Of a DNA stretch of 64,000 nt, positions 5,462 through 25,501 are shown one piece after another. The stretch's first letter is position 1; each line of letters starts with the position of its first letter. This DNA comes from an uncultured virus (IMG/VR IMGVR_UViG_3300004805_000005). Taxonomy: Duplodnaviria; Heunggongvirae; Uroviricota; Caudoviricetes. The stretch lies in the IMG/VR virus record IMGVR_UViG_3300004805_000005; one strand, 5' to 3'. A program made the position numbers and the translations under genes. The notes under the pieces are model-generated. The model had not been told where the DNA came from and did no database searches. It was given only the letters and a program-made list of their open reading frames with translations.

Positions 5462-5490
5462 TTGACAACATATAAAACTTTTGGTATAAT
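5462..5490 (+). promoter_or_regulatory. Perfect sigma70 consensus promoter
   Basis: TTGACA (5462-5467)-N17-TATAAT (5485-5490). Confidence 0.75.
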
Positions 5491-5689
5491 AAACACATAA
5501 CATTCAAAAACATAAAAGACTTTGTTCAGAAACTTCTGAAGCTTAAGAAACAATACTATTACATTTTTTCTAACAATTTAAGAAACATTTATTTTTATAC
5601 TTTATAAGTTTCTGAGATATTCTAAAACTACTTTAATACAAATTTTAACAAATCTTAGAAACATTTTAATATGAATAAGATATAATCTA

Positions 5690-5717
5690 TTGACTATTAT
5701 GCAAAATATACTATAAT
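5690..5717 (+). promoter_or_regulatory. Sigma70-type promoter for uvsW
   Basis: TTGACT-N16-TATAAT, 10 nt before the ATG at 5728. Confidence 0.6.
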
Positions 5718-5727
5718 TAAAACAACA

Positions 5728-7395
5728 ATGGCAAAAGTAATACTAGATTGGGATGAGAAATATAAGACAGCTATTATAGTATCTGACTTCTTACCCGCTA
5801 TACGAGCTAGATTTTCAATACCAAACACTAGCAAAGAAATGTTAAAGAAACAAGGAAAACCAACTTGGTACATGCCTGATTTCGTAAGTCCTATAACAAC
5901 TGGAGGTAAGTTTGGTATAGGTTTATACTTTGAGCTGATAACTTTTTTTACAAAAGATAATGTAGATTACCAAATAATAACAACTGATTTATTAGAAAAA
6001 CAAATCATACAAACATATGAATGGAATGATAATTATATTATAGATAGTCTTAATATGGAATTAAGACCATATCAAGAATCGTCAGTAAAGAAATGTATTC
6101 GTATGGGATATGGAATTGTTATTGTAGGAACTGCTGGTGGTAAAACATGTATCATGGCATCTTTGATACAGACAATACGAGCAAAGGAAGCTCCATTCAC
6201 TACACTAGTCATATTACCCTCAAATCTTCTGCAACAGACCTATAAAGAGTTTTTGAGCTATGGAATTGACCCAGAGTTAATGTCAACATGGGGTGGAGAT
6301 GGTGGGTTTATAAAGAAACCTATTGTCTTGGCGAGTATAGAAATATTGAGAGCCAATCTAACTACCTTCTCTGAGCGTAAACCAAAAACAGAATATGCAT
6401 GGAAATCTGACTGCATTTGCAAATTAAGCATTAAGCCATGTAAGAATAAATGCAAATATGGTTATGAAAAGGAAACCTGTACTAACAAAGTATCTACCCA
6501 AACATATAAAGAATATCTAGACATCTTTTCTAATGAAGAGAAAGCACGAAAGAAAAGTTGGGCGGCTAGACGTAAAGATACATTGGATCAGTTATCTGAT
6601 GTTGAATTAGTTTTAATTGACGAAATTCACAGCTTACGTCGAGGAAACGTAATGAACGAAGTAGTTGGTTTATTCTCTACAAGACATAGATTTGGGTTTA
6701 CTGGAACCCTTCCATCTGATATAATTGATCAATGGAATATAATGGGGAACATTGGACCTATTCTAATTGATGTAGATTCTGCGGCACTACGTAAAATGGA
6801 TTATATTGCACAAGTAAAGGCACAAATATTACAAATACAATATAAAACAAAACTACGAGTCAACATAGACCAAAATGATCCAACCAAAGCCTTTAACGAA
6901 GAATGCGAGTTTATATACAAGAATAAGTTCAGGAACCGGGTGATGTTGAAGCTATGCAATTCTTTTGAAAATAATGCATTGATCATGGTAGATAAGATAG
7001 ATCACGGAAGACGAATTGCGAAATATATCAGAAACAATTTGAAAGACAAACAAGTATATTGGATACGGGGATCGGTTGAGATGGAAGATAGGGAACGGAT
7101 CAGAGCCTTGATGGAAACCAACAACAACGTGGTTTGCGTGGCTATGTCTCGTATTTTTGCTGTTGGTATTAACATCAAGAATTTACATTATGTCGTATTT
7201 GCACAGGGCGGCAAAGCGAAAGTTACTTTAATACAAAGTATCGGAAGAGGGTTGCGTTTGCATGATAACAAGGTGTGTCTTATCATAATAGATATTGCAG
7301 ATATGTTGCATTATGGAACAAAACACCTTTTAGAAAGATTAGATTACTATAAGGACGAACAGATTGAACATGAAACTAAAGAGCTATACGAATAA
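5728..7395 (+). CDS. uvsW: UvsW-like SF2 DNA helicase
   Basis: LRPYQ, GTAGGKT, DEIH, GFTGT, GINIKNLH and QSIGRGLR motifs. Confidence 0.9.
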   Translation: MAKVILDWDEKYKTAIIVSDFLPAIRARFSIPNTSKEMLKKQGKPTWYMPDFVSPITTGGKFGIGLYFELITFFTKDNVDYQIITTDLLEKQIIQTYEWNDNYIIDSLNMELRPYQESSVKKCIRMGYGIVIVGTAGGKTCIMASLIQTIRAKEAPFTTLVILPSNLLQQTYKEFLSYGIDPELMSTWGGDGGFIKKPIVLASIEILRANLTTFSERKPKTEYAWKSDCICKLSIKPCKNKCKYGYEKETCTNKVSTQTYKEYLDIFSNEEKARKKSWAARRKDTLDQLSDVELVLIDEIHSLRRGNVMNEVVGLFSTRHRFGFTGTLPSDIIDQWNIMGNIGPILIDVDSAALRKMDYIAQVKAQILQIQYKTKLRVNIDQNDPTKAFNEECEFIYKNKFRNRVMLKLCNSFENNALIMVDKIDHGRRIAKYIRNNLKDKQVYWIRGSVEMEDRERIRALMETNNNVVCVAMSRIFAVGINIKNLHYVVFAQGGKAKVTLIQSIGRGLRLHDNKVCLIIIDIADMLHYGTKHLLERLDYYKDEQIEHETKELYE

Positions 7396-8860
7396 TGATT
7401 TTAACATAATTGTTAAATCAGCTAATGATTTTGATTGGAAACCTTCTATAGAAACAATAGAAACGCCAACCACACTATTATTTGCAATATCTACACTTCC
7501 TAATATACTAATCAAAAAAATAATATGGGATTTTGGAACAGGGAAACAGGTAAAAAGTCTAACCAATAGAAAATTTCCACTGAATGGATACGGTATTGGT
7601 TGTAAATACAAAAAATCGCACGATACTACGATAACCATACAGGCTTCTGTTTATACGGACGATCATAGGTTTATCCCAAAGTCGTTGACGAGTACAACGT
7701 TGAATCATATAATAAAGACACACTATGTTGATCCTGATACGTTTAAAGATCAGATATTAAAATATTATAAAACAGATAACTTTACAGATGATGTGGCAGA
7801 ATCCATATATAAAATTGCAAATAGATTAGCGTTTTCGTCCAACTTCATAAATTATTGCGTAGATAGCGAAACCGAAGCTCTAACACAAAGAGGATGGTTG
7901 ACTTATAAAGATATAACTACCAAAGATACGATATTATCATACAATATAAATGACAAGAAATTAACTTGGTCTTCTATAAAGGAAGTATTCGTCAACGAAA
8001 ATTATAATGGTCCTATGCATTATTTAACCACTCCGGGATTAGATGCATTAGTAACGCCTAATCATAAATTCGTATCAGCAGAGTCTGGCCTAAAGGCAGT
8101 TGAGCATATTAAATGCGGAGAGCATATTGTACTTAACGGACTTCCGGTGGAATCTATGTTATCAATCATCAAGTGTGATGATAACGATGTAAAAAAAATA
8201 GCATTAGATTATATCAATGAATCAGAATTTAGCAAAGAGATTAATATATTTAGTATAATTGTTATAACTAATTTAAATCAAGATCAAAGAACATTGCTAA
8301 TAGAAACCATATTGCGGAATAGTAAGGATTTAACATATATACATAAAGATAAACTACATATAGATAATTTTCTTATGTTATGCACACTAGCAGGAATAAA
8401 GACAACAACCAAGTTTATGGAAAATGATTCGACATATAATGTTAAAGTTTATATGAAATCAAATCTTCAATGTAAATCAGATGATATAACATTTCACCCG
8501 ACTCAACAATATACAGGAACAGTATGGTGTCCAAAAACCGAGTACGGTACATTTGTATGTAAACGCAATGGATCTATATATGTCACAGGAAACACATACC
8601 GTGAAGAGATGGTGGGGGATGCCATCTTGTTAATGGTGAAGGCACTAACAAAACGAAAGTTCGATCCAGACAAAGGAAATCCATTTTCTTACTTTACACG
8701 TATTGCATTTAACGCATTTTGTAATAGAATAAAGGAAGAGAAGAAGAATCGGGAAGAGTTAACAAAATATCAGGAAGACATATACGGTGGAGCACTCGGA
8801 GAAACCACGAATCATCTCGGAGAAGATCATTCACACGAATCAAATAATTATGAAAATTAA
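7364..8860 (+). CDS. gp55: T4 gp55-like late-transcription sigma factor containing an intein
   Basis: The exteins join as IANRLAFSSNFINY|TYREEMVGDAI...FDPDKGNPFSYFTRIAFNAFCNRIKEEK, the gp55 signature; immediately upstream of gp47. Confidence 0.85.
   Translation: MNMKLKSYTNNDFNIIVKSANDFDWKPSIETIETPTTLLFAISTLPNILIKKIIWDFGTGKQVKSLTNRKFPLNGYGIGCKYKKSHDTTITIQASVYTDDHRFIPKSLTSTTLNHIIKTHYVDPDTFKDQILKYYKTDNFTDDVAESIYKIANRLAFSSNFINYCVDSETEALTQRGWLTYKDITTKDTILSYNINDKKLTWSSIKEVFVNENYNGPMHYLTTPGLDALVTPNHKFVSAESGLKAVEHIKCGEHIVLNGLPVESMLSIIKCDDNDVKKIALDYINESEFSKEINIFSIIVITNLNQDQRTLLIETILRNSKDLTYIHKDKLHIDNFLMLCTLAGIKTTTKFMENDSTYNVKVYMKSNLQCKSDDITFHPTQQYTGTVWCPKTEYGTFVCKRNGSIYVTGNTYREEMVGDAILLMVKALTKRKFDPDKGNPFSYFTRIAFNAFCNRIKEEKKNREELTKYQEDIYGGALGETTNHLGEDHSHESNNYEN
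7856..8593 (+). mobile_element. Intein (246 aa) in the late sigma factor
   Basis: Block A CVDSETEALTQRGW, block B VTPNHKF, block F/G YTGTVWCP...IYVTGN, +1 residue Thr. Confidence 0.9.
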
Positions 8861-9908
8861 CAAAAACGAAGTAGCGATAATCGGTGACGTTCATCTAGGA
8901 CTGCATCAATCTAATAACATATGGCATGACATAAGCTGTAATTATGGTAAATGGTTGAAGCAGACCCTACAGGATAAGGGTATAAAGGATATCATCTTTC
9001 TTGGTGATATCTTGGACAATAGAAATGAAGTATCGGTTACCACGCTTCATGTGTTAAGCAAATTTTTCAAGATGCTGGAAGACTTCAATATCATAATCGT
9101 GATAGGAAATCATGATTGTTATTATTCTAAGAGATCAGATGTGCATTCGTTGGGGACGTTAAACGATTGGGCAAATATAGAAGTTGTGGATAAACCAGTA
9201 TCAGTTAATCTATTCAACCAAACTCTAACGTTCTGCCCTTGGAATACTCAAATAGAAGATATACCAAAGAGTGATATCCTATTCGGACATTTCGAGATAA
9301 ATACATTCAAAATGAATGGTGGTCATGTATGTGAAGGCGGATACAACTCAGCCGCTCTTCTAGACAAGGCACCATTGATCATGTCTGGACATTTCCACAA
9401 AACGGATGAAAGAGTGTATAAGAACGGAAAGATTCTATATGTTGGTTCAGCCTATCAGAATAACTGGGGAGAGTATGGAGATCCGAAAGGATTCTATGTA
9501 TTAGACTTGCACGACAATTCAATGGAATTTATAGTAAATGATGTATCTCCTAAACACGTAAAGATTAGAATGTCTGAATTACTGGCTGTTGGAAAGATTA
9601 CTGACAGCATAAAAAAGGAATTCAATGGTAATATAATTAACTTCATTATAGATATGGAAATGGAACAGAAAGGAATCGATACTCTGTTGGCTAAGTTCTA
9701 TGCACTAAATCCAATATCAGTAAAAACAGAAAATGAACTAATCTCCAAACCCATTGTTTCTTCTGCGGAAGAGATAAAATTCGAAGGCATAGATATAAAG
9801 AAGGATATTGTAGAGTTTGTTAACAGCTTAGATAATATTGACAACAAAGATACGATCATTAATTATTTGATAGATGTGCATGATAAGTGCAACGAAGGGA
9901 AGAAATGA
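8850..9908 (+). CDS. gp47: gp47 / Mre11-SbcD-like recombination nuclease
   Basis: GDVHLG, LGDILD, GNHD, FGHFE and SGHFH metallophosphoesterase motifs; ATG at 8850 preferred over the track's 8787. Confidence 0.9.
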   Translation: MKINKNEVAIIGDVHLGLHQSNNIWHDISCNYGKWLKQTLQDKGIKDIIFLGDILDNRNEVSVTTLHVLSKFFKMLEDFNIIIVIGNHDCYYSKRSDVHSLGTLNDWANIEVVDKPVSVNLFNQTLTFCPWNTQIEDIPKSDILFGHFEINTFKMNGGHVCEGGYNSAALLDKAPLIMSGHFHKTDERVYKNGKILYVGSAYQNNWGEYGDPKGFYVLDLHDNSMEFIVNDVSPKHVKIRMSELLAVGKITDSIKKEFNGNIINFIIDMEMEQKGIDTLLAKFYALNPISVKTENELISKPIVSSAEEIKFEGIDIKKDIVEFVNSLDNIDNKDTIINYLIDVHDKCNEGKK

Positions 9909-10708
9909 ACAACAAAATTGGAGTTGGTGTAGTAACCTATAAAAGGCCGGATTATTTCAGAACATGCATTAATTCGATTCCGAATGTAGATACGTTGGTA
10001 GTTGTCAATGATGGTGATCCATACGAATCGTCAATATATCCTAGTAGTGTAAAGGAAGTGATTCAGCATACTAAGAACAAGAGCGTAGGTGTATCAAAAA
10101 ATGAACTTATGCGATATTTGATACAAGATGGATGTGACCATATCTTTATATTAGAAGATGATATAAAACTAATAGATCCTAATATATTCATCAATTATAT
10201 CAAAGGAGCAGAATCTTCTGGTATTTGGCATATGATGTATGGATATCATGGACCAGCAAATAAAGATGCCGATAGCAAACCAAAGCCCAGATATATCGTA
10301 GACTATAAAGAGGCTAAAATTGCACTTAACCAGCATTGTGTTGGAGCATTCTGTTATTATCTCAGAAGTGTGATAAAACAGGTTGGGTATATAGACGAAA
10401 AGTTTTTTAATGCGTGGGACCATCTGGAACATTCCTTCCGTATCGTAAAGGCTGGAGTACTTCCTGCATATTGGTGGTGGCCTGATATCGCAGATTCTGC
10501 ATCTATGATAGAAGATCAAGATCCTACGTTAATGAGTAGTGTGATACGAAAAGATGGTCAAGAGTTTATGAAATCATTCCAAGAAGGTGCGGCATGGTTT
10601 AAACACAAACATGGAGCATATCCTACCCATATACCCGACACCAAGTTTGAAGATGTCGTAGCCGCCCTTAAACAGATTAAAACCAATTACGCAAAAAAAG
10701 TTCTATGA
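9905..10708 (+). CDS. GT2 (GT-A) glycosyltransferase
   Basis: VGVVTYKRP, VVNDG, ILEDD and VGYIDEKF motifs. Confidence 0.85.
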   Translation: MNNKIGVGVVTYKRPDYFRTCINSIPNVDTLVVVNDGDPYESSIYPSSVKEVIQHTKNKSVGVSKNELMRYLIQDGCDHIFILEDDIKLIDPNIFINYIKGAESSGIWHMMYGYHGPANKDADSKPKPRYIVDYKEAKIALNQHCVGAFCYYLRSVIKQVGYIDEKFFNAWDHLEHSFRIVKAGVLPAYWWWPDIADSASMIEDQDPTLMSSVIRKDGQEFMKSFQEGAAWFKHKHGAYPTHIPDTKFEDVVAALKQIKTNYAKKVL

Positions 10709-11430
10709 ATGATTTAACTCTTATTACATGTTCCTATAATACTCCTGATATCATTTTAACTATGTTAAAATCATTTCACCAGTCTAACAATACATGTGAT
10801 AAGTTGGTGATAATTGAAAATTCTACTAATGATGAAACAGCCAAAATATTAAAAGAAAACAATATACCCTTTTATGTTCCGGGAACAAGACGACATAGCG
10901 AAGGAGTTCAAGCTGCCTTTGATATATGCACAACTAAATATGCTTTATTAGTAGATACTGATATTATATTTAAAAAAGATGTAGATCCTGTACTTAAACA
11001 ATGCAAAGAAAATGATATATCGCTACTAGGAGAAGTGTGTGGAAATAGAGGTGGACGAGTAATTAACACGAGAATACATCCATGGTTTTGTTTTATTAAT
11101 ATAGATAATATAAAAAAATATAATATCAAATTTTGGGATTCCCGTAGATTTGGAAATGGTTATGATGTAGGTTGTTCATTCTTCGAAGATATCAGAAAAA
11201 ACGGTCTTAATGTAGGTGATATAAAAATGGACCCATTTTATTATACACACTACGAAGGTATGAGTTGGCGTACTCAAACATATGATCCAACTAAACCAGA
11301 TACTGGTATAGACAATGGAGGGACGCATCCATTCATCGAATACTTCAACGCAGGGAACAGAACCAAACGAATATACGATTCAGAAACGGCATATCTTAGA
11401 CCGATAAACATAAAGAACATATTTAAATAA
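10705..11430 (+). CDS. GT2-like glycosyltransferase
   Basis: ITCSYNT, IIENS and LLVDTD (DxD). Confidence 0.75.
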   Translation: MNDLTLITCSYNTPDIILTMLKSFHQSNNTCDKLVIIENSTNDETAKILKENNIPFYVPGTRRHSEGVQAAFDICTTKYALLVDTDIIFKKDVDPVLKQCKENDISLLGEVCGNRGGRVINTRIHPWFCFINIDNIKKYNIKFWDSRRFGNGYDVGCSFFEDIRKNGLNVGDIKMDPFYYTHYEGMSWRTQTYDPTKPDTGIDNGGTHPFIEYFNAGNRTKRIYDSETAYLRPINIKNIFK

Positions 11431-12255
11431 ATGCAAAAGAAATACTTAATAAATATATATGATTATATGTTCTCAAGTGGAGGCATCATTGCCTGTCATA
11501 AACTATGTCATGATCTTAGGTCTCTTGGAAGAGAAGCTTATATATTAGGCAGGAATACTCATCCATTACTTAACGCATCTCAAGTAAATAGAACGTTTAA
11601 ACGAGATGAATTAGTTGTCATATATCCAGAAGTTATTATAGGTAATCCATTAAAGTCCAAACATGTAGTTCGGTGGATACTTAATACTCCCGGAGAATGC
11701 GCTGGTATGAAACATAATGATTTTTATGGAAACTTGAAAAATACTGATATATTTTTCAAATATTCAGATGCATTCAAATTACACGATGGACTTAATTATA
11801 AAGGTCTATTGACTACCTTTTTTATAGATACTAGAATCTTTAACAACGAAGCAGGAGACCGAAATCATACTTGTTATCTTATAAAGAAGGGCGGGATGAC
11901 TAATAAGTATCATCCAGATGATTCGATAAACGTAAGTAATTTACAAGAAGATCATCCAACAATGGCTGCTATATTTAAAAAAAGCAAATATTTATATTGT
12001 TATGATAATGAATGCTTTTGGGTTGTTTTAGCCGCAGTATGTGGATGTATCCCTATAATCATACCAAACGGAAACTATACCGCAGATGACTGGTATGAAA
12101 AATTTCCACACAAGACGGCAGGTATTGCGTATGGTATGGATAACCTTAAACGAGCAGAAGAATCTATAAATAGTATAACAGATGTTTTGACAATATATAA
12201 AGAAAAACATTTAAGCACCGTAAAGAATCTTATCAATATATGCGAAACTCTATAA
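11431..12255 (+). CDS. WavQ-like putative glycosyltransferase / polysaccharide biosynthesis protein
   Basis: SGGIIACHKLCH, VIYPEVIIGNPL, VVRWILN and AAVCGC motifs. Confidence 0.55.
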   Translation: MQKKYLINIYDYMFSSGGIIACHKLCHDLRSLGREAYILGRNTHPLLNASQVNRTFKRDELVVIYPEVIIGNPLKSKHVVRWILNTPGECAGMKHNDFYGNLKNTDIFFKYSDAFKLHDGLNYKGLLTTFFIDTRIFNNEAGDRNHTCYLIKKGGMTNKYHPDDSINVSNLQEDHPTMAAIFKKSKYLYCYDNECFWVVLAAVCGCIPIIIPNGNYTADDWYEKFPHKTAGIAYGMDNLKRAEESINSITDVLTIYKEKHLSTVKNLINICETL

Positions 12256-12962
12256 CCATATCATGTATCATGCTAACAAATACCAATAACCTAATGTTGT
12301 ATGGTATATGCAACCGTGCTCTACAAACGCTAGTATGGTCAGAACCTACTATAAAATTCAATATAATATTAATGGAGTCTAGCCATTCCTCGCAGGAACA
12401 AGGATTCTTTTATAGTGTAGACGGAGCAGACATAACAACAATAACGCCTAAAGAAGAGTTTAATTATAATAAATTTTTAAATTATGGGATTGACGAACTT
12501 AAAAGGACCAATAACTTAACAAACTGGATATTAATTTTGAATAATGATTTAATATTTACTAAAAATTGGTTATCTAAATTACTAGACTGGCAAAAAATTC
12601 ACCCAGAGGTATTATCCTTGAATCCATGGGAACCCCAGTGGCACGAAAGACATGGCCTATCACCAACCATAGAGGTCCATTATGGGTATAGAGTTCCGTT
12701 CGAAATAACTGGATGGTGTATATTAATCAACAAAGAAGTTATATCTAAGTGTGATCTATTTGATCCTAGATTTGTTTTTTGGTACCAAGATAATGATTAT
12801 GCCAAAACTTTGGAATCACATAAAATAAAGCATGCTTTATTGACCAACTCAAAGGTATATCACATGGCTAGTCAGTCTCATGAGATATTAGATGATACAC
12901 AACGTGAGATAAAGACGCATAGCCAAATTAACACGTTTGTGGCAAAGTGGGGCACTATATGA
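12240..12962 (+). CDS. GT2-like glycosyltransferase
   Basis: FNYNKFLNYG, ILNNDL, GWC and FDPRFVFWYQDND motifs. Confidence 0.8.
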   Translation: MRNSITISCIMLTNTNNLMLYGICNRALQTLVWSEPTIKFNIILMESSHSSQEQGFFYSVDGADITTITPKEEFNYNKFLNYGIDELKRTNNLTNWILILNNDLIFTKNWLSKLLDWQKIHPEVLSLNPWEPQWHERHGLSPTIEVHYGYRVPFEITGWCILINKEVISKCDLFDPRFVFWYQDNDYAKTLESHKIKHALLTNSKVYHMASQSHEILDDTQREIKTHSQINTFVAKWGTI

Positions 12963-13789
12963 AAATATTTTTAACTGGATCATCTGGATACTTAGGTTCT
13001 AATATATACAAAAACATATCTGCTGAATATTTTTTATACAGGAGAGGAAGTAATATTCTAGATGATCTATTAAAATTTAAACCAGATTTTATTATACATT
13101 CGGCAGGAGAAATATATGATAAAGAAAAGATGTTCGATAGTAATGTAGTATTAACTAATGATATTTTACAATATGTTAAAAATAACAATATCATAAAAAT
13201 GATATATCTAGGAACATCTTCAGAATATGGGAAATGTATTACACCAATGGCCGAGACAGATACCACTGATCCATTTAGTATATATGCAGCAACCAAATCG
13301 TGTGGAACTTTATTGTGCCAAGCATATGCTAGAGAATTCGACAAGGATATTTGTATTCTACGTCCATTTAGTGTGTACGGTAGTAATGAACCAATGCACA
13401 GACTGATACCGACCATTGTAAGTAATATACACGCAAATAAATCCACTACATTAATACATGGATTCCATGATTTTATATATATAAAAGATTTCATTAAATT
13501 GATTTACATTTTGCTAAATTCTGATAAAATTAAAACCAAGGCAGATATCATAAATTGCGGGTCAGGAAGACAGACTAGTAATAGAGAGATATTTGATTTG
13601 ATATGCGGATTAATAAGCATACCGAATAACGTAATCGAGATAGACAAGAAAAAGGAATGTGATTCAGAGATGTGGATCTGTGATATCGAAAAAAATATAA
13701 AGAAATATAATTTTAACTGTGATTATATTTTGACCGATGGTCTAGGAGAATATATAGATGAACGAAATAAAACTAAAGTTGATAGATGA
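12947..13789 (+). CDS. NAD-dependent NDP-sugar epimerase/dehydratase (extended SDR); probable start 12959
   Basis: TGSSGYLG, SSEYG, YAATK and LRPFSVYG. Confidence 0.9.
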   Translation: MGHYMKIFLTGSSGYLGSNIYKNISAEYFLYRRGSNILDDLLKFKPDFIIHSAGEIYDKEKMFDSNVVLTNDILQYVKNNNIIKMIYLGTSSEYGKCITPMAETDTTDPFSIYAATKSCGTLLCQAYAREFDKDICILRPFSVYGSNEPMHRLIPTIVSNIHANKSTTLIHGFHDFIYIKDFIKLIYILLNSDKIKTKADIINCGSGRQTSNREIFDLICGLISIPNNVIEIDKKKECDSEMWICDIEKNIKKYNFNCDYILTDGLGEYIDERNKTKVDR

Positions 13790-14462
13790 TTCATACATGG
13801 ACTTATCATTTAATGATAAATTTAACGTATATTATAATAATGCACAATCATATACTAGACATATTATAGAAAAAGAAATAAACCATGGGCATTATCAACA
13901 TCCCCAATTCATGGAAATATTCAAGAATAGAAATGCTGTTGTCATAGATGCTGGAGCTAATATTGGATTATTCTCTTTACATATATCTCCAAAATGTAAA
14001 AGCATATATTCAATAGAGCCGACCAAACAGCATCTTGAAGTTTTGGTTGAGATAGCAAAGGCAAAGAACCTAACTTGTATTGTTCCAGAAGAAATAGCAT
14101 TATGCAACTATACGGGAACAGTTAAGTTCATTACCGATAGCAGCAATACAACTACAAATAGAATTCATGATAGTGGATATGCTGTACCATGTGAAACGTT
14201 GTTAGGTTTTATAACAAAGCGAAAAATAGAAGATATTGATCTGTTGAAATTAGATATAGAAGGAGGAGAACAATTTGTTGTATTAGAAGATCCAACATTT
14301 GAGCAAGCAATAAAGAAGTGTAAAAACATATATGTAGAAATACATCCTCCACTTTCCGATGGGAATGCCATATGCAACAAAATATCTAATCTAGGATATA
14401 ATCATATATTTATGAATAGTGATTATCTGAATAATTATCTAAACGTTTTATTTTACAAATAA
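13758..14462 (+). CDS. FkbM-family methyltransferase
   Basis: IDAGANIG, IEP, LKLDIEGGE and VEIH. Confidence 0.9.
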   Translation: MNEIKLKLIDDSYMDLSFNDKFNVYYNNAQSYTRHIIEKEINHGHYQHPQFMEIFKNRNAVVIDAGANIGLFSLHISPKCKSIYSIEPTKQHLEVLVEIAKAKNLTCIVPEEIALCNYTGTVKFITDSSNTTTNRIHDSGYAVPCETLLGFITKRKIEDIDLLKLDIEGGEQFVVLEDPTFEQAIKKCKNIYVEIHPPLSDGNAICNKISNLGYNHIFMNSDYLNNYLNVLFYK

Positions 14463-15220
14463 TGAAAACACTATTTTACACAATTTTATGCTCAGACTAT
14501 AAACATCATATCGAGTTTGATTTATTCACTAAGGGATTTAAACGATTTCATCCAGATATTGAACTTAAGGTAGTGGATGAGAATATAATCGATGAATTAC
14601 GCAAGACAAAACCATGGATAAATTTACTTAATTGTAAGGCTAGTATAGCCAAACTATTCTATAATGACTACGATCTTGTGGTTAATATAGATGCAGATCA
14701 TTTCATATTTGATAGATTAGATGAAATATTAATAGGAGATTATGATGTAGCTGCACCGGCCAATTATAATCTATACGAAAACGTTGGAATTAAAATAACT
14801 ACATATTTAAATAATATATATGAAATTGTGCCAGAGACACAATATATTCAGGGAGGATTAATTGCTTCGACTAGTAAACGATTTTGGGATGTGTATGAAT
14901 TAGCCTCATTTAGATATAGTAATAGTTTTGCTTGTAAGGAAAATGATACACTAAATCTTGTAATGTGTTTTAATAATTTTAAATTTAAATTTTTAGATGG
15001 TCACTTTGACTACAGAGATCCAAAATTTAAATGCTTTTATGGATGTAGTTCATTAAACCAAGAAAAGAACGTAATTGTATTTAACAATAAATTATATTTG
15101 AATGATAAACCAATGAAATGCTACCATGTTGCTAAAGGTGGTGGAAAGCCTAAGATGGTAGACATATTTATTCCTAATGTCGTTGATTGGTACAAAAAGG
15201 AGATAACGTATGGAATTTAA
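14462..15220 (+). CDS. GT-A (GT8-like) glycosyltransferase
   Basis: VNIDADH (DxD), ENDTLN and a C-terminal His (YHVAKGG). Confidence 0.65.
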   Translation: MKTLFYTILCSDYKHHIEFDLFTKGFKRFHPDIELKVVDENIIDELRKTKPWINLLNCKASIAKLFYNDYDLVVNIDADHFIFDRLDEILIGDYDVAAPANYNLYENVGIKITTYLNNIYEIVPETQYIQGGLIASTSKRFWDVYELASFRYSNSFACKENDTLNLVMCFNNFKFKFLDGHFDYRDPKFKCFYGCSSLNQEKNVIVFNNKLYLNDKPMKCYHVAKGGGKPKMVDIFIPNVVDWYKKEITYGI

Positions 15221-15782
15221 TACAACACTTTTTACTCCATATGTACTGGACTTCTTTACAGAAAATCTAAAAGACTATGATACGAACTATCTAGAGATAG
15301 GAGTATATTATGGAAAAAGCATAAAAGAACTATCCGAAACATATACAAATAAAACTATATTTGCGATAGATCCATTCATAGAAGATGGACACACTACACA
15401 TAAAAGCGGAATAGCCCAAGGCAACGAGCTGTCATCACAAAAAAATAATGTTATATCTATACTAGAAACTCACAAAAACATAAAACTATTTCAAGCATCT
15501 TCGGTAGATTTTTATAAGACCCTAACCAAAGAAATAATAACAGATCTAAATATAGGTTGTATTTTTATGGATGGAGATCATCACTATTCATCCATAGTAA
15601 ATGATTACAAATTATCTATTGATTTGATAGGAAGTAAAAAAGGTATCATATGCTTCGATGACTTGCATCTAGATGATGTATTACAAGCATACAACGAATT
15701 CATACAAATAATGGAACATAGAATAGAAAATATTAATATCCTCGGAAATACGTGTAAGGCAGTTAGATTAAAAAATGATTAA
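15210..15782 (+). CDS. Class I SAM-dependent methyltransferase (Methyltransf_24-like)
   Basis: LEIGVYYGKS, AIDPF, MDGDHHY and FDD. Confidence 0.85.
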   Translation: MEFNTTLFTPYVLDFFTENLKDYDTNYLEIGVYYGKSIKELSETYTNKTIFAIDPFIEDGHTTHKSGIAQGNELSSQKNNVISILETHKNIKLFQASSVDFYKTLTKEIITDLNIGCIFMDGDHHYSSIVNDYKLSIDLIGSKKGIICFDDLHLDDVLQAYNEFIQIMEHRIENINILGNTCKAVRLKND

Positions 15783-16401
15783 TACATTACATAATAGACT
15801 TATTGATATATCATTCAAAAATAAATTATCTCATTTGAGTAGTTGCATAACTTCATTACCCATCATATATGATATATATAAAAAGAAAAAGGAAGAGGAT
15901 ATATTCATACTTTCTAATGGACATGCTGGACTAGCGTTATATGTTGTGTTAGAACACTTCTATAGATTTAATGCCGAAGATCTGCTACATACTCATGGAG
16001 TACATCCGAATATAGACACAGAACACAAAATATATTGCTCTACAGGTAGTCTTGGACTGGGGTTGCCAGTAGGAATAGGTTATGCTATATCAAATTTAAC
16101 TAGAAAGATTTACGTGTTAATATCTGACGGAGAAGCTAAAGAAGGAAGCATATGGGAATCTCTTAATTTTATTGATACCAAACAGATAACTAATATAGAA
16201 GTTAATGTTAATGTTAATGGATATTCTGCTTATGATATTATAGATCAAGATAATATAACACGTAAGCTGAAATCCTTCCTAAATAATATAGTGATACACT
16301 ACACAAATTTAACGAAGTTTCCATTATTAGATAATATGGGAATAGAATCTCACTATTATATATTAAAAACAGAAGATGAGAGGAACACATTATTGTTATG
16401 A
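15775..16401 (+). CDS. Transketolase-like ThDP-binding (PP) subunit
   Basis: SHLSS, LSNGHA, GSLGLG and SDGEAKEGSIWE...N ThDP motif. Confidence 0.9.
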   Translation: MINTLHNRLIDISFKNKLSHLSSCITSLPIIYDIYKKKKEEDIFILSNGHAGLALYVVLEHFYRFNAEDLLHTHGVHPNIDTEHKIYCSTGSLGLGLPVGIGYAISNLTRKIYVLISDGEAKEGSIWESLNFIDTKQITNIEVNVNVNGYSAYDIIDQDNITRKLKSFLNNIVIHYTNLTKFPLLDNMGIESHYYILKTEDERNTLLL

Positions 16402-16871
16402 GATATACGTTTTCACATTTAATATTAGATGCGATGCAGAAAGATAAGAATATATTCTTTCTTACAGCAGACTTAGGGTATAAAATATTTGATCCATTAT
16501 TTAATGCCTTTCCGACAAGAGTGTTCAACACTGGAGCCGCTGAACAACTAATGGTATCATGCGCTGTTGGATTGGCGTTAGATAAAAAGCTACCTGTCGT
16601 ATATAGCATAACACCATTTCTGTTATATCGTCCATTTGAAATCATTAGAAATTATGTTAATAATGAAAAGTTAAACGTTACTCTTATTGGTTCAGGTAGA
16701 GATAAAGATTACGCACATGATGGATTTAGCCACTGGGCGGAAGATGATAAGAAAATAATGAATATATTTGAAAATATAAAAACGTTTCATCCAAATAACA
16801 AAGAAGATTTACAAACTAAGTTTGATTATTATCTTTATAATGGACCTTCGTATATAAATTTAAAAAGATAA
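16398..16871 (+). CDS. Transketolase-like pyrimidine-binding subunit (no C-terminal domain)
   Basis: LTADLG, NTGAAEQ, RPFEIIR and GFSH; ends at GPSYINLKR. Confidence 0.85.
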   Translation: MRYTFSHLILDAMQKDKNIFFLTADLGYKIFDPLFNAFPTRVFNTGAAEQLMVSCAVGLALDKKLPVVYSITPFLLYRPFEIIRNYVNNEKLNVTLIGSGRDKDYAHDGFSHWAEDDKKIMNIFENIKTFHPNNKEDLQTKFDYYLYNGPSYINLKR

Positions 16872-16924
16872 TTATATATAGCAAATGTCCATAGTTATGG
16901 TATACTTATACAAGAAAGGAAATT

Positions 16925-18814
16925 ATGCAAAAAGAAATTGATTTTTTTGAAGAGATCGGAGACTTCGTATTTACTTCGAAATACGCACGTTATGATGAGA
17001 AACACCAGAGACGAGAAACTTGGCACGAGGCAGTAAAGCGAGTCGAGAAGATGCATCTAAAGAAATATAGTCATCTTCCTAAAGAAGACCTAGAACAGAT
17101 TTCTTGGGCGTTCGATCAAGTCAGAGAAAAGCACGTAGTTGCTTCTATGCGTTCTATGCAATTCGGTGGAAAGCCAATAGAAGTACAAAATACTCGTATG
17201 TATAATTGTGCTATGCGACACGTAGATTCTATTCGATCTTTTTCTGAAATATTCTTTTTGTTGATGTGCGGAGTTGGTGTGGGATTTGGACTGAATAAGA
17301 AATCATTAAATCGACTTCCTGATTTGGTTGATAAGACAGACCGAAATGGAACAATTCTAACCTATGTAATCCAAGATAGCATAGAAGGTTGGGCTGATAG
17401 CGTAGAGGCTCTTCTTAGTTGTTACTTCAAGAACACTGCCTTTACTGGACGCAAGATAGTTTTCGACTATTCTAAGATTCGTGCAAAGGGAACTCCTATC
17501 AAGACTAGTGGGGGGAAAGCTCCCGGACATGAGGGGTTAAAGCAGAGTCTAAAGAAGATCAAAGATATTTTAGATTATATCATCGAAGACAAAGTACAGA
17601 ATCGGATACAAACAATAAATGCATATGATATAATCATGCATATGTCAGATGCGGTACTTTCGGGAGGCGTCAGAAGAAGTGCCACCATTGCTCTATTCCC
17701 CCAAGATGATGAGATCATGCTCAACGCCAAAACCAATTTCAAAGTATTGCGTACTATTGGATTTGAAAAGGAAACCAGCAAGAAGGGTGAGATTACTTGG
17801 GAAGGTCGTATTGTTATTGATTCTACCTATGGTGGCATCGAAGGCAAGAAATATGATGTATCCTTGACAGAGTATGAATACACTGAGATGCTATGTAAGG
17901 ATAAGTTGATAAATTGGAGACACATTGAACCCCAGAGAGCACGTAGCAACAATTCTGTTCTATTAATGCGCGATAAAGCAACTCCAGAATTTTTCAAGTC
18001 TATTATAGAAAAGATTCAGCAGTACGGGGAACCGGGATTTGTGTTCGCAGATGATGAGATGTTTTTAGTTAATCCATGTTCTGAGGTCGGAACAATTCCT
18101 ATCACCAGTGATGGTATGTATGGTGTACAGTTTTGTAATTTGGTTTCCATGAATGGAAGACACATTGATAGTGTTGAAAAGTTTATGACATATGCAAAGG
18201 CGGCTACTATCATCGGAACTTTACAGGCGGGATATACTAATTTCAAATACTTGAGCAATGTATCAAAGCAGTTAACAGAAGAAGAAGCATTGCTTGGAGT
18301 ATCGATTACTGGATTAATGGATAACCCTACTATTCTTCTTGACCCTAAGATCCAAGCAGAGGTTGCCCAGTATACTAAGATTGTTAACGCAGAATGGGCC
18401 AAGAAGCTGGGTATTAATCAGGCGGCACGTATTACCCTTGTCAAGCCTGAGGGGTGTTTGGATAGTAATACTTCAATCAAAACATCCTTGGGGGATACAA
18501 CCCTAAAAGAAATATTTGAAATAAATGGATATAATATTGATGATATTAGTAAACTGCAAGGAACATTTATTCCACCTTCTGAGAAGATATATGTAAGAGA
18601 CGAAAATGATGAGTGGAAAATAATAACACAACTATTTGTTAATGGAACAGATACTCCAATATATGAAATAGAAATGGAAGACCACACTATAATAAAGTGT
18701 ACGGGACATCATGCGTTCTTAACAAAGGGCAATGTATGGAAATCAGCATCAGATTTAACCGAAACCGATGAAATAATAGATTTTAACACAAATAAAACCA
18801 GCATAAAACTATAA
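16925..18814 (+). CDS. nrdJ: Class II (adenosylcobalamin) ribonucleotide reductase, N-terminal part fused to split-intein N half
   Basis: YNC, GVGVGF, GGVRRSA, NPCSE, QFCNL and VKPEG, then CLDSNT (intein block A). Confidence 0.9.
   Translation: MQKEIDFFEEIGDFVFTSKYARYDEKHQRRETWHEAVKRVEKMHLKKYSHLPKEDLEQISWAFDQVREKHVVASMRSMQFGGKPIEVQNTRMYNCAMRHVDSIRSFSEIFFLLMCGVGVGFGLNKKSLNRLPDLVDKTDRNGTILTYVIQDSIEGWADSVEALLSCYFKNTAFTGRKIVFDYSKIRAKGTPIKTSGGKAPGHEGLKQSLKKIKDILDYIIEDKVQNRIQTINAYDIIMHMSDAVLSGGVRRSATIALFPQDDEIMLNAKTNFKVLRTIGFEKETSKKGEITWEGRIVIDSTYGGIEGKKYDVSLTEYEYTEMLCKDKLINWRHIEPQRARSNNSVLLMRDKATPEFFKSIIEKIQQYGEPGFVFADDEMFLVNPCSEVGTIPITSDGMYGVQFCNLVSMNGRHIDSVEKFMTYAKAATIIGTLQAGYTNFKYLSNVSKQLTEEEALLGVSITGLMDNPTILLDPKIQAEVAQYTKIVNAEWAKKLGINQAARITLVKPEGCLDSNTSIKTSLGDTTLKEIFEINGYNIDDISKLQGTFIPPSEKIYVRDENDEWKIITQLFVNGTDTPIYEIEMEDHTIIKCTGHHAFLTKGNVWKSASDLTETDEIIDFNTNKTSIKL
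18455..18811 (+). mobile_element. Split intein N-fragment (119 aa)
   Basis: Begins CLDSNTSIKT; block B KCTGHHAFLT; ends shortly after WKSASDLTETDEI with no terminal Asn motif. Confidence 0.9.
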
Positions 18815-18838
18815 GTATTTATATATGGAGGTTTTATG
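18802..18838 (+). promoter_or_regulatory. Late promoter within a start-codon-sequestering hairpin
   Basis: CATAAAAC (18802-18809) is complementary to GTTTTATG (18831-18838, includes the ATG); ATAAGTATTTAT (18811-18822) and the GGAGG SD lie between the arms. Confidence 0.65.
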
Positions 18839-19918
18839 AGTATATATTTAAACCTAAAGAAGAATAGCAAACGATATAAAGTTCACCGGCTAAAGAGACA
18901 TCTAATATATGTATATGGAGAAGATCGGGGAATGCAACGATATTATAAAATAATAAGAGGAGCATCTCTGAAATATTTCATATTTAGATTTGGCGTGATA
19001 GAAGGTAACCGTAAATATAAACTATATAGGATGAGAGGAACAAAAGAAGCATATATCACAAAATATGGCGAGGATGAGGGAATCAAAAAATACATAGAAA
19101 AAAATAAAAAACTATCGGTAAGTACTGAATCTCTAAAAAATAACGGTTATACTGATGATGAGATAAAAGACATACAACAAAAACACGCAAAGAATTCCGC
19201 AATAACCAAAGAAAATATGATTCATAACTATGGATTAGAAGAGGGAACGAGGAGATATGAGAATTATACTAACAACACAAGAGTTAGTGTTAGGTCTATT
19301 GATGAATTAATATCACGTAAAGGTTTATCATTAGAAGACGCGAAGTTATATGTAAAACAAATACAACGTAGAGATTTACCATTTTTTATCAAAAAATACG
19401 GAACAATAATAGGAAAAGACAAATACCAGAAAGCGACCATTAAAAAGGCATACGCAAATACAGAAGAATATTATAAAAATATATATGGAGAAGGGACCGG
19501 AAAAGAAATATGGAAAGAGGTTGTCCACAAAAGAATGTCAATCGGATCTGATTCTAAACCACAGATAGAATTTGCTATGAATATATATAATAGGTTAAAT
19601 CAAAAGACAAAATCAAGGTTTATTGGGATGCCAATAACAAAATCTTGTATTATATATTTCGAGAAAAATAAATATAACCTGAACTATTGTATTCCAGATG
19701 TTATAATAGATAAAAATATCATAGAATTTGATGGAGATTATTGGCATACACTACCAAATATATTAGAACGGGATATACAGAAAACGGTTCTATTGATATC
19801 GATGGGATATCAAATAATACGAGTTAAGTATTCAGATTACATAAAAAATAAAAATTCATCTGATTTTTATGATAAAATTACAGAACAATGCAATATAAAG
19901 GAAATAAATGAAAATTAA
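18836..19918 (+). CDS. Free-standing homing endonuclease, Vsr/DUF559-like PD-(D/E)xK C-terminal domain
   Basis: PD...IIEFDGDYWH...RD...GYQIIRV; six (Y/F)GxxxGxxx(Y/W) repeats in the N-terminal region; lies between the intein halves. Confidence 0.8.
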   Translation: MSIYLNLKKNSKRYKVHRLKRHLIYVYGEDRGMQRYYKIIRGASLKYFIFRFGVIEGNRKYKLYRMRGTKEAYITKYGEDEGIKKYIEKNKKLSVSTESLKNNGYTDDEIKDIQQKHAKNSAITKENMIHNYGLEEGTRRYENYTNNTRVSVRSIDELISRKGLSLEDAKLYVKQIQRRDLPFFIKKYGTIIGKDKYQKATIKKAYANTEEYYKNIYGEGTGKEIWKEVVHKRMSIGSDSKPQIEFAMNIYNRLNQKTKSRFIGMPITKSCIIYFEKNKYNLNYCIPDVIIDKNIIEFDGDYWHTLPNILERDIQKTVLLISMGYQIIRVKYSDYIKNKNSSDFYDKITEQCNIKEINEN

Positions 19919-20012
19919 AACAATAAAACGAGGAATATCCACTCTAACCCTAGACATAGAAGTAGCCGATTCACACACATATCAGTTATCTAATGGATGT
20001 ATAACTCATAAC
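19908..20012 (+). mobile_element. Split intein C-fragment (35 aa)
   Basis: Basic MKIKTIK start, block F DIEV, block G THN, +1 Thr. Confidence 0.9.
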
Positions 20013-20624
20013 ACTACCAGTCTGATGCTAGGCACTGCCAGTGGCATTCATCCACACCATGCCAGAACATACTTCCGTAGGATTCAATGCAATAAAGAAG
20101 ATAATGTTTATAAACATTTCAAAACATATAATCCTCATGCAATTGAACCAAGTGTCTGGAGTTCAACGAAGACTGATGATGTGGTTACTTTTCCATTAAC
20201 AATCTCGGATAAAGCTATGGTTAAGGAAGATCTAACGGCACTACAGCATCTTCAATATATATTGAATACGCAGAAGAACTGGGTGCTGAATGGAGAGACA
20301 GAAGCGAACAAGAAGAACATTCACCATAACGTATCTTGTACGGTAATCGTAGATACTCCAGAGTGGGATGATGTTATTAAGTTTATCTTCGAACACAAGC
20401 AATATTTCACGGCTGTTGCCTTCTTGCCTAAGATGGGAGACAAGATATATAAACAAGCTCCTAATGAAGCGATAACAACACCAGAAGATGAATTAACATT
20501 TAATAACTTGAAAAATCACTGGAAGCGTGTAGAATATACAAAGATGAACGAAGACCAAGACGTTACTGAACTACAGAAAGAAGTGGCCTGTTCGGGAGGG
20601 GTTTGCGAACTCACAAGGATATAA
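19908..20624 (+). CDS. nrdJ: Split-intein C half fused to the NrdJ C-terminal part
   Basis: MKIKTIKR...LDIEV...ITHN|TTSLMLGTASGIHP, HNVSCT and terminal CSGGVCE. Confidence 0.9.
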   Translation: MKIKTIKRGISTLTLDIEVADSHTYQLSNGCITHNTTSLMLGTASGIHPHHARTYFRRIQCNKEDNVYKHFKTYNPHAIEPSVWSSTKTDDVVTFPLTISDKAMVKEDLTALQHLQYILNTQKNWVLNGETEANKKNIHHNVSCTVIVDTPEWDDVIKFIFEHKQYFTAVAFLPKMGDKIYKQAPNEAITTPEDELTFNNLKNHWKRVEYTKMNEDQDVTELQKEVACSGGVCELTRI

Positions 20625-20625
20625 T

Positions 20626-20829
20626 ATGACAGACATAAAAACACCATTTGAGAGACGTTTAGATGATATGGAAGCCGATATCAGTAAAATTAAAGATATC
20701 GTAGAACAGCTACATATAGATATGATGGATTGTAAAGAAGCCTTTGAGCATAATGATGATAGTTTAACAAATCTACGAACGATTGTTAACGATCTTGCTA
20801 AAGCTCTTCCTTCAGAAGTAACCGTATAA
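20626..20829 (+). CDS. Small coiled-coil hypothetical protein
   Basis: 67-aa ORF filling the gap between nrdJ-C and gp46 with tight coupling. Confidence 0.55.
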   Translation: MTDIKTPFERRLDDMEADISKIKDIVEQLHIDMMDCKEAFEHNDDSLTNLRTIVNDLAKALPSEVTV

Positions 20830-22661: not shown

Positions 22662-23886
22662 AATAAACACACTAGGAAGCGTAATGGGACGACCAATTGG
22701 GTTACCCATGCAACAGTATGGTGCAATGCCAGTTATGGCCCAGCATGAGCCACCTCCTCTCGAAATGCCGGGGCAGGGTCTATCTCGTGCTATAAACTAC
22801 TATGCCGATTATGCTGGGTGTGGCTGGTGGCGTATGATCGCTCCTGAAATGTTGATGAATATTAATAACAGAGCTGTTGTCTGTGGTTTAACTACTATGG
22901 TACTAGATCCACGATTCTATGCTGGAATAAAGGCAGTTCGTTTACAGAGACAGGCTACGCCAGTACAGTTGCAATTCTTGAAATTCTTGAAACAAGGTTC
23001 TGTACAACACAATTTCAAAATAATATATGAGATTGACGATATTATTGTAAAACATGATATTCCTGACTACAATCGTTGTAAGGTAGCATTTGAGAGCGAT
23101 GAGATTATGAACAGTTGTATCGAAATGATGCAGATGTCTGATGAAATTAGTGTAACCTGTCAGTATATGAAGGAATATTATATCAACAAGACCGGAAATA
23201 AGAAAGTTACGGTAATCCCAAATTATCCTGCAAGGATGTGGTTAGATGGACATTATGATCCTAAGAAGATTATAAAAGATTATCAAGATAATAAGAAAAA
23301 ACCCCGTGTTGCATATGTTGGTTCTGGTACACATATCGATGTGATGAATAAAACCAACCAGAAAGATGATTTCGCGCATATCGTAGATGATATCATTTCG
23401 TCTAGAAAGGATATTCAATGGGTATTCGTAGGGGCACACCCATTAGCATGTAAGCCATTTATTGATCGCGGAGAAATGGAGTTTGTACAGTGGTTTCCTT
23501 TATTGGAACTTTGGAAGGCATATACAACCACAAATGTAAATGCAGTTATTGCTCCACTACAGAATAACGTATTCAATAGTGCTAAATCTAATATTAAGTT
23601 CTTGGAAGCAGCTACTGCCGGTATCCCCGGAATTTTCCAAGATATGATCACATATAAAGACGCACCCCTACGTTTTACTACTGGTTCGGAGTTAGTTGAT
23701 CAGATCAAGGCTTTGACCAAGGATGAGAATACATATATGAAGTTCTCGAAGAAGGCTCGTGAGTATGCGGATGGGTGCTGGTTGGATGACCATCTTGATG
23801 AGTTTGTTGAACTGTATTATACAAATATTGGAGATAAGGGTAGAATTGCATTATTGAAGAACAATCCAGATCAGAAAATCATATAA
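22633..23886 (+). CDS. GT-B fold glycosyltransferase-like protein
   Basis: GCGWWR, YEIDD, IAPL..N.FN.AKSNIKFLEAATAGIP. Confidence 0.75.
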   Translation: MNTQQYQPIKINTLGSVMGRPIGLPMQQYGAMPVMAQHEPPPLEMPGQGLSRAINYYADYAGCGWWRMIAPEMLMNINNRAVVCGLTTMVLDPRFYAGIKAVRLQRQATPVQLQFLKFLKQGSVQHNFKIIYEIDDIIVKHDIPDYNRCKVAFESDEIMNSCIEMMQMSDEISVTCQYMKEYYINKTGNKKVTVIPNYPARMWLDGHYDPKKIIKDYQDNKKKPRVAYVGSGTHIDVMNKTNQKDDFAHIVDDIISSRKDIQWVFVGAHPLACKPFIDRGEMEFVQWFPLLELWKAYTTTNVNAVIAPLQNNVFNSAKSNIKFLEAATAGIPGIFQDMITYKDAPLRFTTGSELVDQIKALTKDENTYMKFSKKAREYADGCWLDDHLDEFVELYYTNIGDKGRIALLKNNPDQKII

Positions 23887-25456: not shown

Positions 25457-25501
25457 ATACTTTTGTATAGTATTGTATTGCAATATTATTAAGGAGTATA
25501 T
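25453..25501 (+). promoter_or_regulatory. Late promoter plus SD-sequestering hairpin for the HNH gene
   Basis: ATAAATACTT (25453-25462); ATACTTTT (25457-25464) can pair with AGGAGTAT (25492-25499, G-U pairs allowed), enclosing an inner TAGTATTG/CAATATTA stem. Confidence 0.6.

Follow-up and report, generated by a model that had tools for sequence, protein, structure and literature searches.

Between the genes gp47 and gp46 of an uncultured T4-like myovirus, ten contiguous open reading frames (ORFs; 9905–16871, + strand) very probably constitute a functional glycan cassette, part of which is a module for tailoring a sugar. The stretch analysed (IMG/VR record IMGVR_UViG_3300004805_000005; 64,000 nucleotides, hereafter the 64-kb window; G+C ~33%) is part of the phage genome and includes a T4-like core consisting of UvsY, a UvsW-like helicase, an intein-bearing gp55, gp47, gp46, a split gp43, UvsX, gp41 and gp32, together with baseplate, sheath and tube genes (PHROG and Pfam). 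We give an even chance to the fuller reading, in which the cassette is interchangeable, produces a C-branched, methylated sugar and has virion proteins as its acceptor. The phage is distant from those in culture, the closest gp46 among isolated phages sharing 28% identity. A megablast near-identity search of phage records with positions 8787–22661 returned no match, nor did a search of viral_contigs with an exact 46-base pattern. The window covers only part of its own genome, and protein I of the cassette was recorded on a contig no longer than 87,960 bp.

The ten genes (A to J) abut or overlap, with intergenic spacings of 0 to −32 bp, and the start of A overlaps the stop of gp47 by 4 bp (ATGA). 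They are translationally coupled, and the extent and coupling proposed by the initial annotation, which was made from the DNA letters alone, were confirmed to the exact coordinate. Five of the products resemble glycosyltransferases (GTs). A (9905–10708) is a GT-A enzyme with an EDD motif (phrog_2456, E 1.5e-26), whose AF2 model (pLDDT 92.3) was matched by Foldseek to the GT-A enzymes WrtF, TarP, POMGnT1 and GalNAc-T3 (TM ≤ 0.60). B (10705–11430) belongs to the GT2 family of GT-A enzymes (PF00535, E 8.9e-8). D (12240–12962) is a probable GT-A enzyme and the least secure of the five (phrog_22332, E 6.8e-8; PF00535, E 0.017). G (14462–15220), for which a Pfam search gave no match, is GT8/Nucleotid_trans-like (Atlas features 0.98; structure TM 0.78 to GT8-named viral clusters) and has a DAD motif identified by eye. 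C (11431–12255) is WavQ-like and resembles half a GT-B fold; without a sequence match in Pfam or PDB, it was placed by an Atlas structure search close to a bacterial cluster named WavQ (TM 0.90), to Glycos_transf_1 clusters (TM 0.73–0.77) and to a mostly Nucleocytoviricota cluster (TM 0.87). The four GT-A enzymes and WavQ-like protein first noticed in the sequence were thus recovered by PHROG, Pfam or structure, while PDB sequence searches with A, C, F, G, H and the GT-B protein described below gave nothing usable.

The other five products would tailor a sugar. E (12947–13789, with a likely true start at the ATG at 12959) is an extended short-chain dehydrogenase/reductase (SDR) of the nucleoside diphosphate (NDP)-sugar epimerase/dehydratase type (PF01370, E 5.9e-33; GxxGxxG and YxxxK motifs); its top NCBIfam matches, LegB and dTDP-glucose 4,6-dehydratase, were both far under cut-off. 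F (13758–14462) is an FkbM-family S-adenosylmethionine (SAM) methyltransferase (PF05050, E 1.9e-13; TIGR01444, E 4.4e-20, 72.6 bits against a cut-off of 37.7) and H (15210–15782) a Methyltransf_24 class I SAM methyltransferase (PF13578, E 2.7e-9). The earlier calls of an NDP-sugar epimerase and of both methyltransferase types therefore stand on domain matches. I (15775–16401; 208 aa; PF00456, Transketolase_N) and J (16398–16871; 157 aa; PF02779, Transket_pyr, E 4.9e-14) are the thiamine diphosphate (ThDP)/PP-domain and pyrimidine-binding subunits, respectively, of what we term a mini-transketolase.

Decay of the genes, named in the initial annotation as one way its proposal could fail, was contradicted by the data. 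Internal stops were absent from all ten genes, the listed contig pieces across the cassette from two freshwater runs (X2 and X3) were identical and free of indels, and a fourth run contained near-identical 151-base pieces. Because the X2 and X3 contigs reproduce the cassette without differences or indels, the genes are intact and circulating; the metagenome runs with the cassette are freshwater. Hydrophobic segments of the kind expected for a membrane span are absent from nine of the ten proteins, and C has one buried-looking stretch. G+C is lower in E–J (0.29–0.30) than in A–D (0.32–0.37).

The pair I and J is an unusual part of the cassette. The best PDB match of I was the N chain of a split transketolase (6yak, E 4.5e-10; 208 versus 309 aa), and that of J to 6yaj (E 4.5e-16) covered residues 39–191 of 341, with conservation of AEQ and DG.SH, which we take to be catalytic positions including the cofactor-activating Glu. 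In 16 aligned members of the I family the SDGE...NxNG cofactor motif and three His were invariant. The ThDP/Mg-binding motif and histidines of a PP domain are accordingly present in I, and a pyrimidine-binding domain in J. However, I falls short of a full PP domain, J has 157 rather than 341 aa and lacks the C-terminal (TKC) domain, and the best NCBIfam transketolase score was 77.8 bits against a cut-off of 488. As full length, the TKC domain and the curated cut-off were not reached, we class the predicted pair as transketolase-like and not as a bona fide transketolase; the two-gene transketolase first proposed survives as two matching halves, in truncated form.

More than 4000 relatives of I were present in the protein collection (114–364 aa searched), the best 120 listed being 200–227 aa. 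An alignment-based scan of viral_contigs identified 393 relatives among 411 candidates, whereas a scan of the same collection with the single protein I confirmed none. In the best 80 of these viral relatives, which were inspected, a J-like gene (TK-pyr) followed the I-like gene (TK-N) in 79 cases. An E-like SDR accompanied the mini-transketolase in 77/80 loci, FkbM in 42/80, Methyltransf_24 in 14/80 (directly before it) and G in 13/80, with a common order of SDR, FkbM, (Methyltransf_24), TK-N, TK-pyr and often then a second SDR. A scan of species genomes gave 600 candidate stretches, of which 534 proved to be TK-N relatives. From these, nine long-contig loci were hand-picked across phyla and their neighbours searched against Pfam. 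In all nine, TK-N was followed by a 155–174-aa TK-pyr without the C-terminal domain, and all nine lay inside glycan clusters. An extended SDR occurred within two genes in eight of them (immediately upstream in five loci, immediately downstream in two and at a distance of two genes in one), and FkbM, other methyltransferases, a ~310-aa GT2 and YfhO/PTPS-related membrane proteins recurred. E itself was closest to the SDRs adjoining the mini-transketolase in the cellular loci (29–37% identity over the full length). On this homology, the E, F/H, I and J half is a conserved module shared by viral contigs and cellular surface-glycan loci, and the joint occurrence of SDR and mini-transketolase (77/80 viral, 8/9 cellular loci) makes plausible the unusual branched and/or methylated sugar that had been suggested for this phage.

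In a TK-N tree built by a quick method and rooted at the midpoint only, the window, L246 (described below) and L247 fell within a mostly viral branch (13 starred rows, of which 10 are viral), and 40 of the 53 cellular sequences were on the opposite side. The mini-transketolase profile had no match in five cassette-free genomes of the phage clade, in a search run without a positive control. A narrow literature search returned no description of a mini-transketolase in glycan loci or phages. The module, which recurs in several hundred viral contigs as well as in the surface-glycan loci of numerous uncultured bacteria and archaea, predicts a new family of branched-sugar enzymes. Separately, in metagenome-assembled genomes of Patescibacteria and Gammaproteobacteria (L011, L028, L043, L017), SDR and mini-transketolase were followed by the ~310-aa GT2, often with PTPS_related/YfhO membrane proteins and carbamoyltransferases, a layout like that of three-component (ArnC/ArnT-like) lipid-carrier glycosylation.

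The position of the cassette was compared across relatives by means of a gp47 alignment run against metagenome contigs. This gave 515 candidate stretches, of which 155 proved to be relatives; the best 80 of these were retained. In the window, gp47 (8850–9908, + strand; SbcD-like nuclease subunit; phrog_100, E 3.1e-61; Metallophos) is the upstream anchor, and gp46 (20829–22661, + strand; SbcC-like; phrog_77, E 4.5e-86) the downstream one. In 57/80 loci gp46 started no more than 45 bp from the end of gp47, bearing out the statement that the two are normally near-adjacent; 8/80 were too short to judge, and in four (L108, L123, L149, L152) the match was confined to the later part of gp46, the spacing to the GT-B gene fitting gp46 alone. 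The remaining inserts were varied. A single A-like gene separated gp47 from gp46 in L114, L115, L119 and L148, a methyltransferase and a gene without assignment did so in L146, and multi-gene inserts were found in L085, L086, L106 and L089/L090. An orthologue of A (54–74%) directly followed gp47 in L001, L002, L085, L086 and L088–L090, and in all relatives with a gp47 identity of 63–70%, making A the conserved first gene of the island in close relatives. The comparison of gene content across relatives that the initial annotation had called for revealed different sugar genes behind it: GT2, Methyltransf_24, a GT-D-like gene and UDP-GlcNAc 2-epimerase in L001/L086; the B orthologue, Methyltransf_24 and a nucleotidyltransferase in L085; a paralogue of A, Glyco_trans_1_2, a methyltransferase and GDP-mannose 4,6-dehydratase in L089; and, in the more distant L106 (gp47 40%), two GT2, DUF6492, GT11, Methyltransf_23 and a GT47-like gene. 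C–J occurred at this site in none of the 80 other loci.

The gp47–gp46 gap is hence an insertion hot spot for exchangeable sugar genes, with T4-like core genes flanking a block of GT, sugar-nucleotide and methyltransferase genes whose content varies between L001, L085, L089 and L106. That the window cassette is wedged between the two genes holds in that it abuts gp47 and lies in the gap, but on the other side J is separated from gp46 by a 67-aa ORF and an interrupted class II ribonucleotide reductase (RNR), the latter not a glycan gene. Some distant members of the A family (L148:8924-9628, L115:8360-9130, L177:85-831, L175:1596-2345), including the single gene between gp47 and gp46 of some lineages, have RDT, NDS, HTD or NSN in place of EDD (DxD), and may be inactive or use a different mechanism.

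The nearest counterpart of the window gene set was found on L246 (genome G006), a 236,391-bp viral contig rated 100% complete and, having both gp47 and the GT-B gene, of the same clade as the window phage. Its cassette reads 4,6-dehydratase-type SDR, A (42%), B (45%; 47% in L085), a D-like gene (27%; PF00535, E 3.9e-5), C (53%), E (55%), F (54%), I (59%), J (62%) and, after these, a small ORF followed by a nucleotidyltransferase gene. The window cassette has no counterpart of this nucleotidyltransferase or of the 4,6-dehydratase. It lies at 87–96 kb, on the strand opposite to gp47 (105,806–106,831) and ~10 kb from it. Between that gp47 and the GT-B gene (109,370–110,518) there are 2.5 kb, room for gp46 and little else. 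The same cassette thus occupies two genomic sites in one clade, and is mobile and interchangeable. As the L246 copy is ~10 kb away from gp47 and on the other strand, the link to gp47/gp46 is positional and not functional; the idea of a new modification system tied to these genes has to be abandoned, given a hot spot with varied sugar genes and a near-identical set ~10 kb off.

How such a gene set might operate can be proposed in two parts, for which we infer the sugar chemistry, the use of host precursors and the acceptor. In the first, E, F, H, I and J would tailor a sugar nucleotide drawn from the host pool: the SDR (E) would form or handle a keto-sugar nucleotide, the two-subunit mini-transketolase would use ThDP to place a two-carbon unit on the keto carbon, giving a C-branched sugar, and the FkbM (F) and Methyltransf_24 (H) enzymes would methylate it. 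Branching and methylation of a keto-sugar nucleotide is the most likely activity of the module as a whole, while for the ThDP step by itself a C-branched product is a balanced bet. The nucleotidyltransferase and 4,6-dehydratase of L246 would supply an NDP-4-keto-6-deoxyhexose, which fits two-carbon addition followed by methylation; the window cassette lacks both genes, so that there the intermediate would come from the host. In the second part, the five soluble GTs (A, B, C, D and G) would, during infection, build a short oligosaccharide specific to the strain in the host cytoplasm, to be placed on the phage's own virion proteins as a variable glycan coat.

The branching step has precedents. 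Three classes of ThDP enzymes that branch keto sugars have been described, namely YerE-like enzymes, E1-type alpha/beta pairs and, as a proposal for miharamycin and amipurimycin, a split-gene transketolase (PMC12247030), and PMC4753412 also deals with the branching of keto sugars by ThDP enzymes; according to these sources the products enter O-antigens and antibiotics. As in these systems (YerE-like, AviB1/AviB2, KbDH, miharamycin/amipurimycin), the ThDP enzyme gene of the cassette adjoins an SDR that would supply the NDP-keto-sugar, and the two-subunit make-up of I/J is shared with the E1-type and split-transketolase cases. In contrast to the known branching enzymes, I and J are far shorter (208 and 157 aa) and have no C-terminal domain.

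As acceptor we favour virion proteins first, host surface glycan second and DNA least, with virion proteins themselves put forward tentatively, at somewhat under an even chance. Soluble enzymes without lipid-carrier machinery would fit direct glycosylation of proteins. In mycobacteriophages, virions are reported to be glycosylated by phage-encoded enzymes (PMC12363180, PMC11256854), the operons including Che8 gp108-110 and Corndog gp38 (PMC12363180, PMC11256854, PMC12619734). These too are small sets of phage-encoded soluble GTs without export genes and provide a model for a virion glycan coat. They differ from the cassette in that the latter would also make its own modified sugar, and host and phage type are different.

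Several observations weigh against this reading. A, the one protein compared, was not orthologous to Che8 gp108, gp109 or gp110 (pairwise E 0.003, 1e-4 and 0.065), and its ~30%-identical relatives among 558 mycobacteriophage records were other cluster F transferases. The cassette sits in a gapless run of replication and recombination genes, and strong sigma-70-like sites for it occur only upstream, at 5462–5717; as it lies among replication genes with these sites upstream, its expression may be early or middle rather than late, a weak hint. The closest cellular contexts are surface-polysaccharide loci, which fit a host-surface target equally well. With both supply genes absent from the window cassette, the branching substrate has to be assumed to be host-derived. 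Finally, the mini-transketolase could catalyse another ThDP reaction.

Promoter motifs gave little further guidance. Sigma-70-like sites and terminators in the window were no commoner than in shuffles, and the T4-type late promoter motif TATAAATA had 11 matches against 16.6 expected; one of them falls inside the cassette, at position 12165, and another precedes the sheath gene by 35 bp. The tail sheath (53065–55914) is itself unusual, with 949 aa of which only the last ~210 residues matched sheath profiles; its large N-terminal part could be an exposed decoration or insertion domain and, as such, a candidate glycan acceptor.

Remodelling of the host surface is a possibility that we consider rather unlikely. 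Here the enzymes would alter lipid-linked or envelope glycan intermediates, and a changed O-antigen, capsule or S-layer would block superinfection or leave fewer progeny trapped. It is the published reading for the GT-rich clusters of pelagimyophages and cyanomyophages (PMC7029224, PMC12801897). The cellular homologues of E, F, I and J are found in surface-glycan loci alongside genes of the flippase-like, YfhO/PTPS-related and Bac_transf types; GT8-, GT2- and WavQ-like enzymes are characteristic of lipopolysaccharide assembly; and the solubility of the cassette enzymes is not contrary to it, as the peripheral GTs of such pathways are also soluble. However, the window ORFs include no priming phosphoglycosyltransferase, flippase or ABC exporter, polymerase or ligase, unlike Wzx/Wzy- or ABC-dependent polysaccharide loci, and the initial annotation was correct that an export gene and a base hydroxymethylase are absent from the window. 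PF02397 and PF00953 were not found in four complete relatives either. With no priming phosphoglycosyltransferase in the window or these relatives, all membrane steps would have to be borrowed from the host, and in each host strain the existing pathway would need to accommodate a new sugar as well as five transferases. A virulent T4-like phage also leaves little time for surface turnover, which counts against a host-surface target.

Modification of DNA, in which the glycan would be carried on a modified base as in T4 glucosyl-hmC or RB69/DLP3 arabinosyl-5-hydroxycytosine and would shield the genome from host nucleases, appears improbable. In its favour, the cassette lies among replication and repair genes, as do the GT genes of T4 (a-gt/b-gt) and RB69/DLP3, and adjoins gp47, where T4 has a-gt. 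The initial annotation is right that a-gt is near gene 47, the T4 order being 46, 46.1, 46.2, 47, 47.1, a-gt, but there a-gt is on the opposite side of gene 47. Oligosaccharides are among the glycans that phage DNA can carry. BshA (3mbo) is the best Foldseek match both of the DLP3 DNA arabinosyltransferases and of the GT4-type core GT-B protein of the window, and a thymidylate-kinase-like P-loop kinase is encoded at 30036–30647, such kinases accompanying the RB69/DLP3 clusters as described in PMC13326640. However, the shared BshA match is generic for GT4, and tblastn of GT-B against phages returned no RB69, DLP3 or T4 record. Neither GT-B nor C resembled T4 a-gt in sequence (E 0.22 and 0.46, respectively). 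To our knowledge, all described routes of phage DNA glycosylation depend on a thymidylate-synthase homologue or a TET/JBP dioxygenase, the 5-hydroxycytosine route (PMC13326640) included. PF00303 was not found in the window, in five clade genomes (G001-G005; three 99–100% complete by CheckV) or in the complete cassette-bearing L246, in a search whose control was positive in 10/14 genomes, the genome of the window phage itself being partial; nor was a Tet_JBP match found in G001-G005, in a search run without a positive control. Taken together, the records of six relatives that CheckV rates 99–100% complete yielded no thymidylate-synthase-family gene; GT-B places five of the six in the clade, and one of these five has the near-same cassette. 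DNA ranks last because complete relatives, unlike T4 and RB69, have no thymidylate-synthase-like gene, and the suggestion that the T4 a-gt position points to a DNA target is not upheld. The P-loop kinase is overlapped by a nucleoside 2-deoxyribosyltransferase-like ORF (together 29533–30647; E 7e-6, below the Pfam cut-off), with no thymidylate-synthase homologue near.

Equally improbable is that the acceptor is another soluble one (a small molecule or a non-structural protein), or that the mini-transketolase and SDR are auxiliary metabolic genes and the transferases unrelated cargo. The solved folds nearest GT-B include the small-molecule enzymes BshA and MshA, the transketolase family belongs to central metabolism, and aquatic phages carry pentose-phosphate genes. 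Against this stand the length of I and J, which are a third to half shorter than a real transketolase and score as far below the cut-off as given above, the placing of the mini-transketolase in glycan clusters at 9/9 cellular loci and beside an SDR at 77/80 viral loci, and the translational coupling of the ten genes.

Among known systems, the cassette is an instance of the already published GT-rich variable regions, with an unusual enzyme. Such regions of aquatic T4-like phages include the host recognition cluster and scattered LPS genes of pelagimyophages (PMC7029224) and the cell-wall synthesis/modification genes of cyanophages S-SCSM2R, S-SCSM1 and P-SSM2 (PMC12801897). Like the cassette, they are non-syntenic sets of GT, NDP-sugar epimerase/dehydratase and methyltransferase genes, with the target proven in none. 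The cassette differs from them in its location, the gp47–gp46 gap of the replication module as opposed to the tail-fibre region, and in its split mini-transketolase, the word 'transketolase' occurring 0 times in the main text of PMC7029224 and PMC12801897. Clade-specific glycosylation gene clusters are also described for the giant viruses of the Megavirinae, where rare bacterial-like sugars decorate virion fibrils (PMC10117803). The cassette resembles these as a virus-encoded, clade-specific cluster, and a mostly Nucleocytoviricota cluster is among the structural neighbours of C. The Megavirinae are, in contrast, eukaryotic giant viruses, and we know of no ThDP branching enzyme in their clusters.

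Few unexplained features of the abundant aquatic T4-like phages are as common as their GT-rich variable regions, for which the published roles are guesses, and the window offers a compact, intact ten-gene example in which the hot spot is defined and the cassette changes genomic site. Should the acceptor be the virion, glycan coats would prove to be general among environmental phages, and variable, beyond the mycobacteriophages. More speculatively, and doubtfully at present, large aquatic phages may possess a self-contained mini-transketolase pathway for a C-branched, O-methylated sugar, carried in swappable cassettes that coat virions strain-specifically. Such coats would parallel the O-antigen diversity of bacteria and would influence adsorption, decay or recognition by hosts and grazers.

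The further GT-B gene at 22633–23886 (+ strand), noted initially together with the cassette, does encode a GT4-type GT-B fold (AF2 pLDDT 88.6; top Foldseek matches BshA, HepE, PglA, WaaG and MshA), but it is a clade core gene and does not belong to the cassette. It followed gp46 and preceded gp43 in all 35 cassette-free loci that reached far enough (orthologues 39–55%), and its relatives made up 541 of 600 candidate stretches in viral_contigs. GT-B is therefore a core gene of a large clade of aquatic phages, independent of the cassette. At TM ≤ 0.65, the fold matches of A and of GT-B are generic and give no guide to the acceptor class. The 35 N-terminal residues of GT-B are disordered and proline-rich (pLDDT < 50; orthologues in L093-L158), and GT-B is 82% identical to its L001 counterpart, the flanking gp46 only 60%.

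Several other genes of the window were interrupted. The RNR region (16925–20624, + strand) comprises two pieces of 629 and 238 aa, both matching phrog_367 and separated by an endonuclease-like ORF of 360 aa (MTES_1575/DUF559), the junction bearing signatures of intein splicing (Intein_splicing); in the L001 relative the RNR is one uninterrupted 714-aa ORF. The late sigma factor gp55 (7364–8860) has 498 aa with an intein-splicing domain at residues 182–365, compared with 253 aa and no such domain in L002 and 593 aa in L001. The polymerase gp43 (23930–27770) is divided into two ORFs of 508 and 371 aa, separated by a 387-aa phrog_5104 ORF; its parts adjoin in most relatives. Lastly, a 153-aa ORF at the start of the window (138–599) has a Cas12f1-like/TnpB TNB domain (E 1.8e-20) and looks like a fragment of an IS605-type TnpB in the phage genome.

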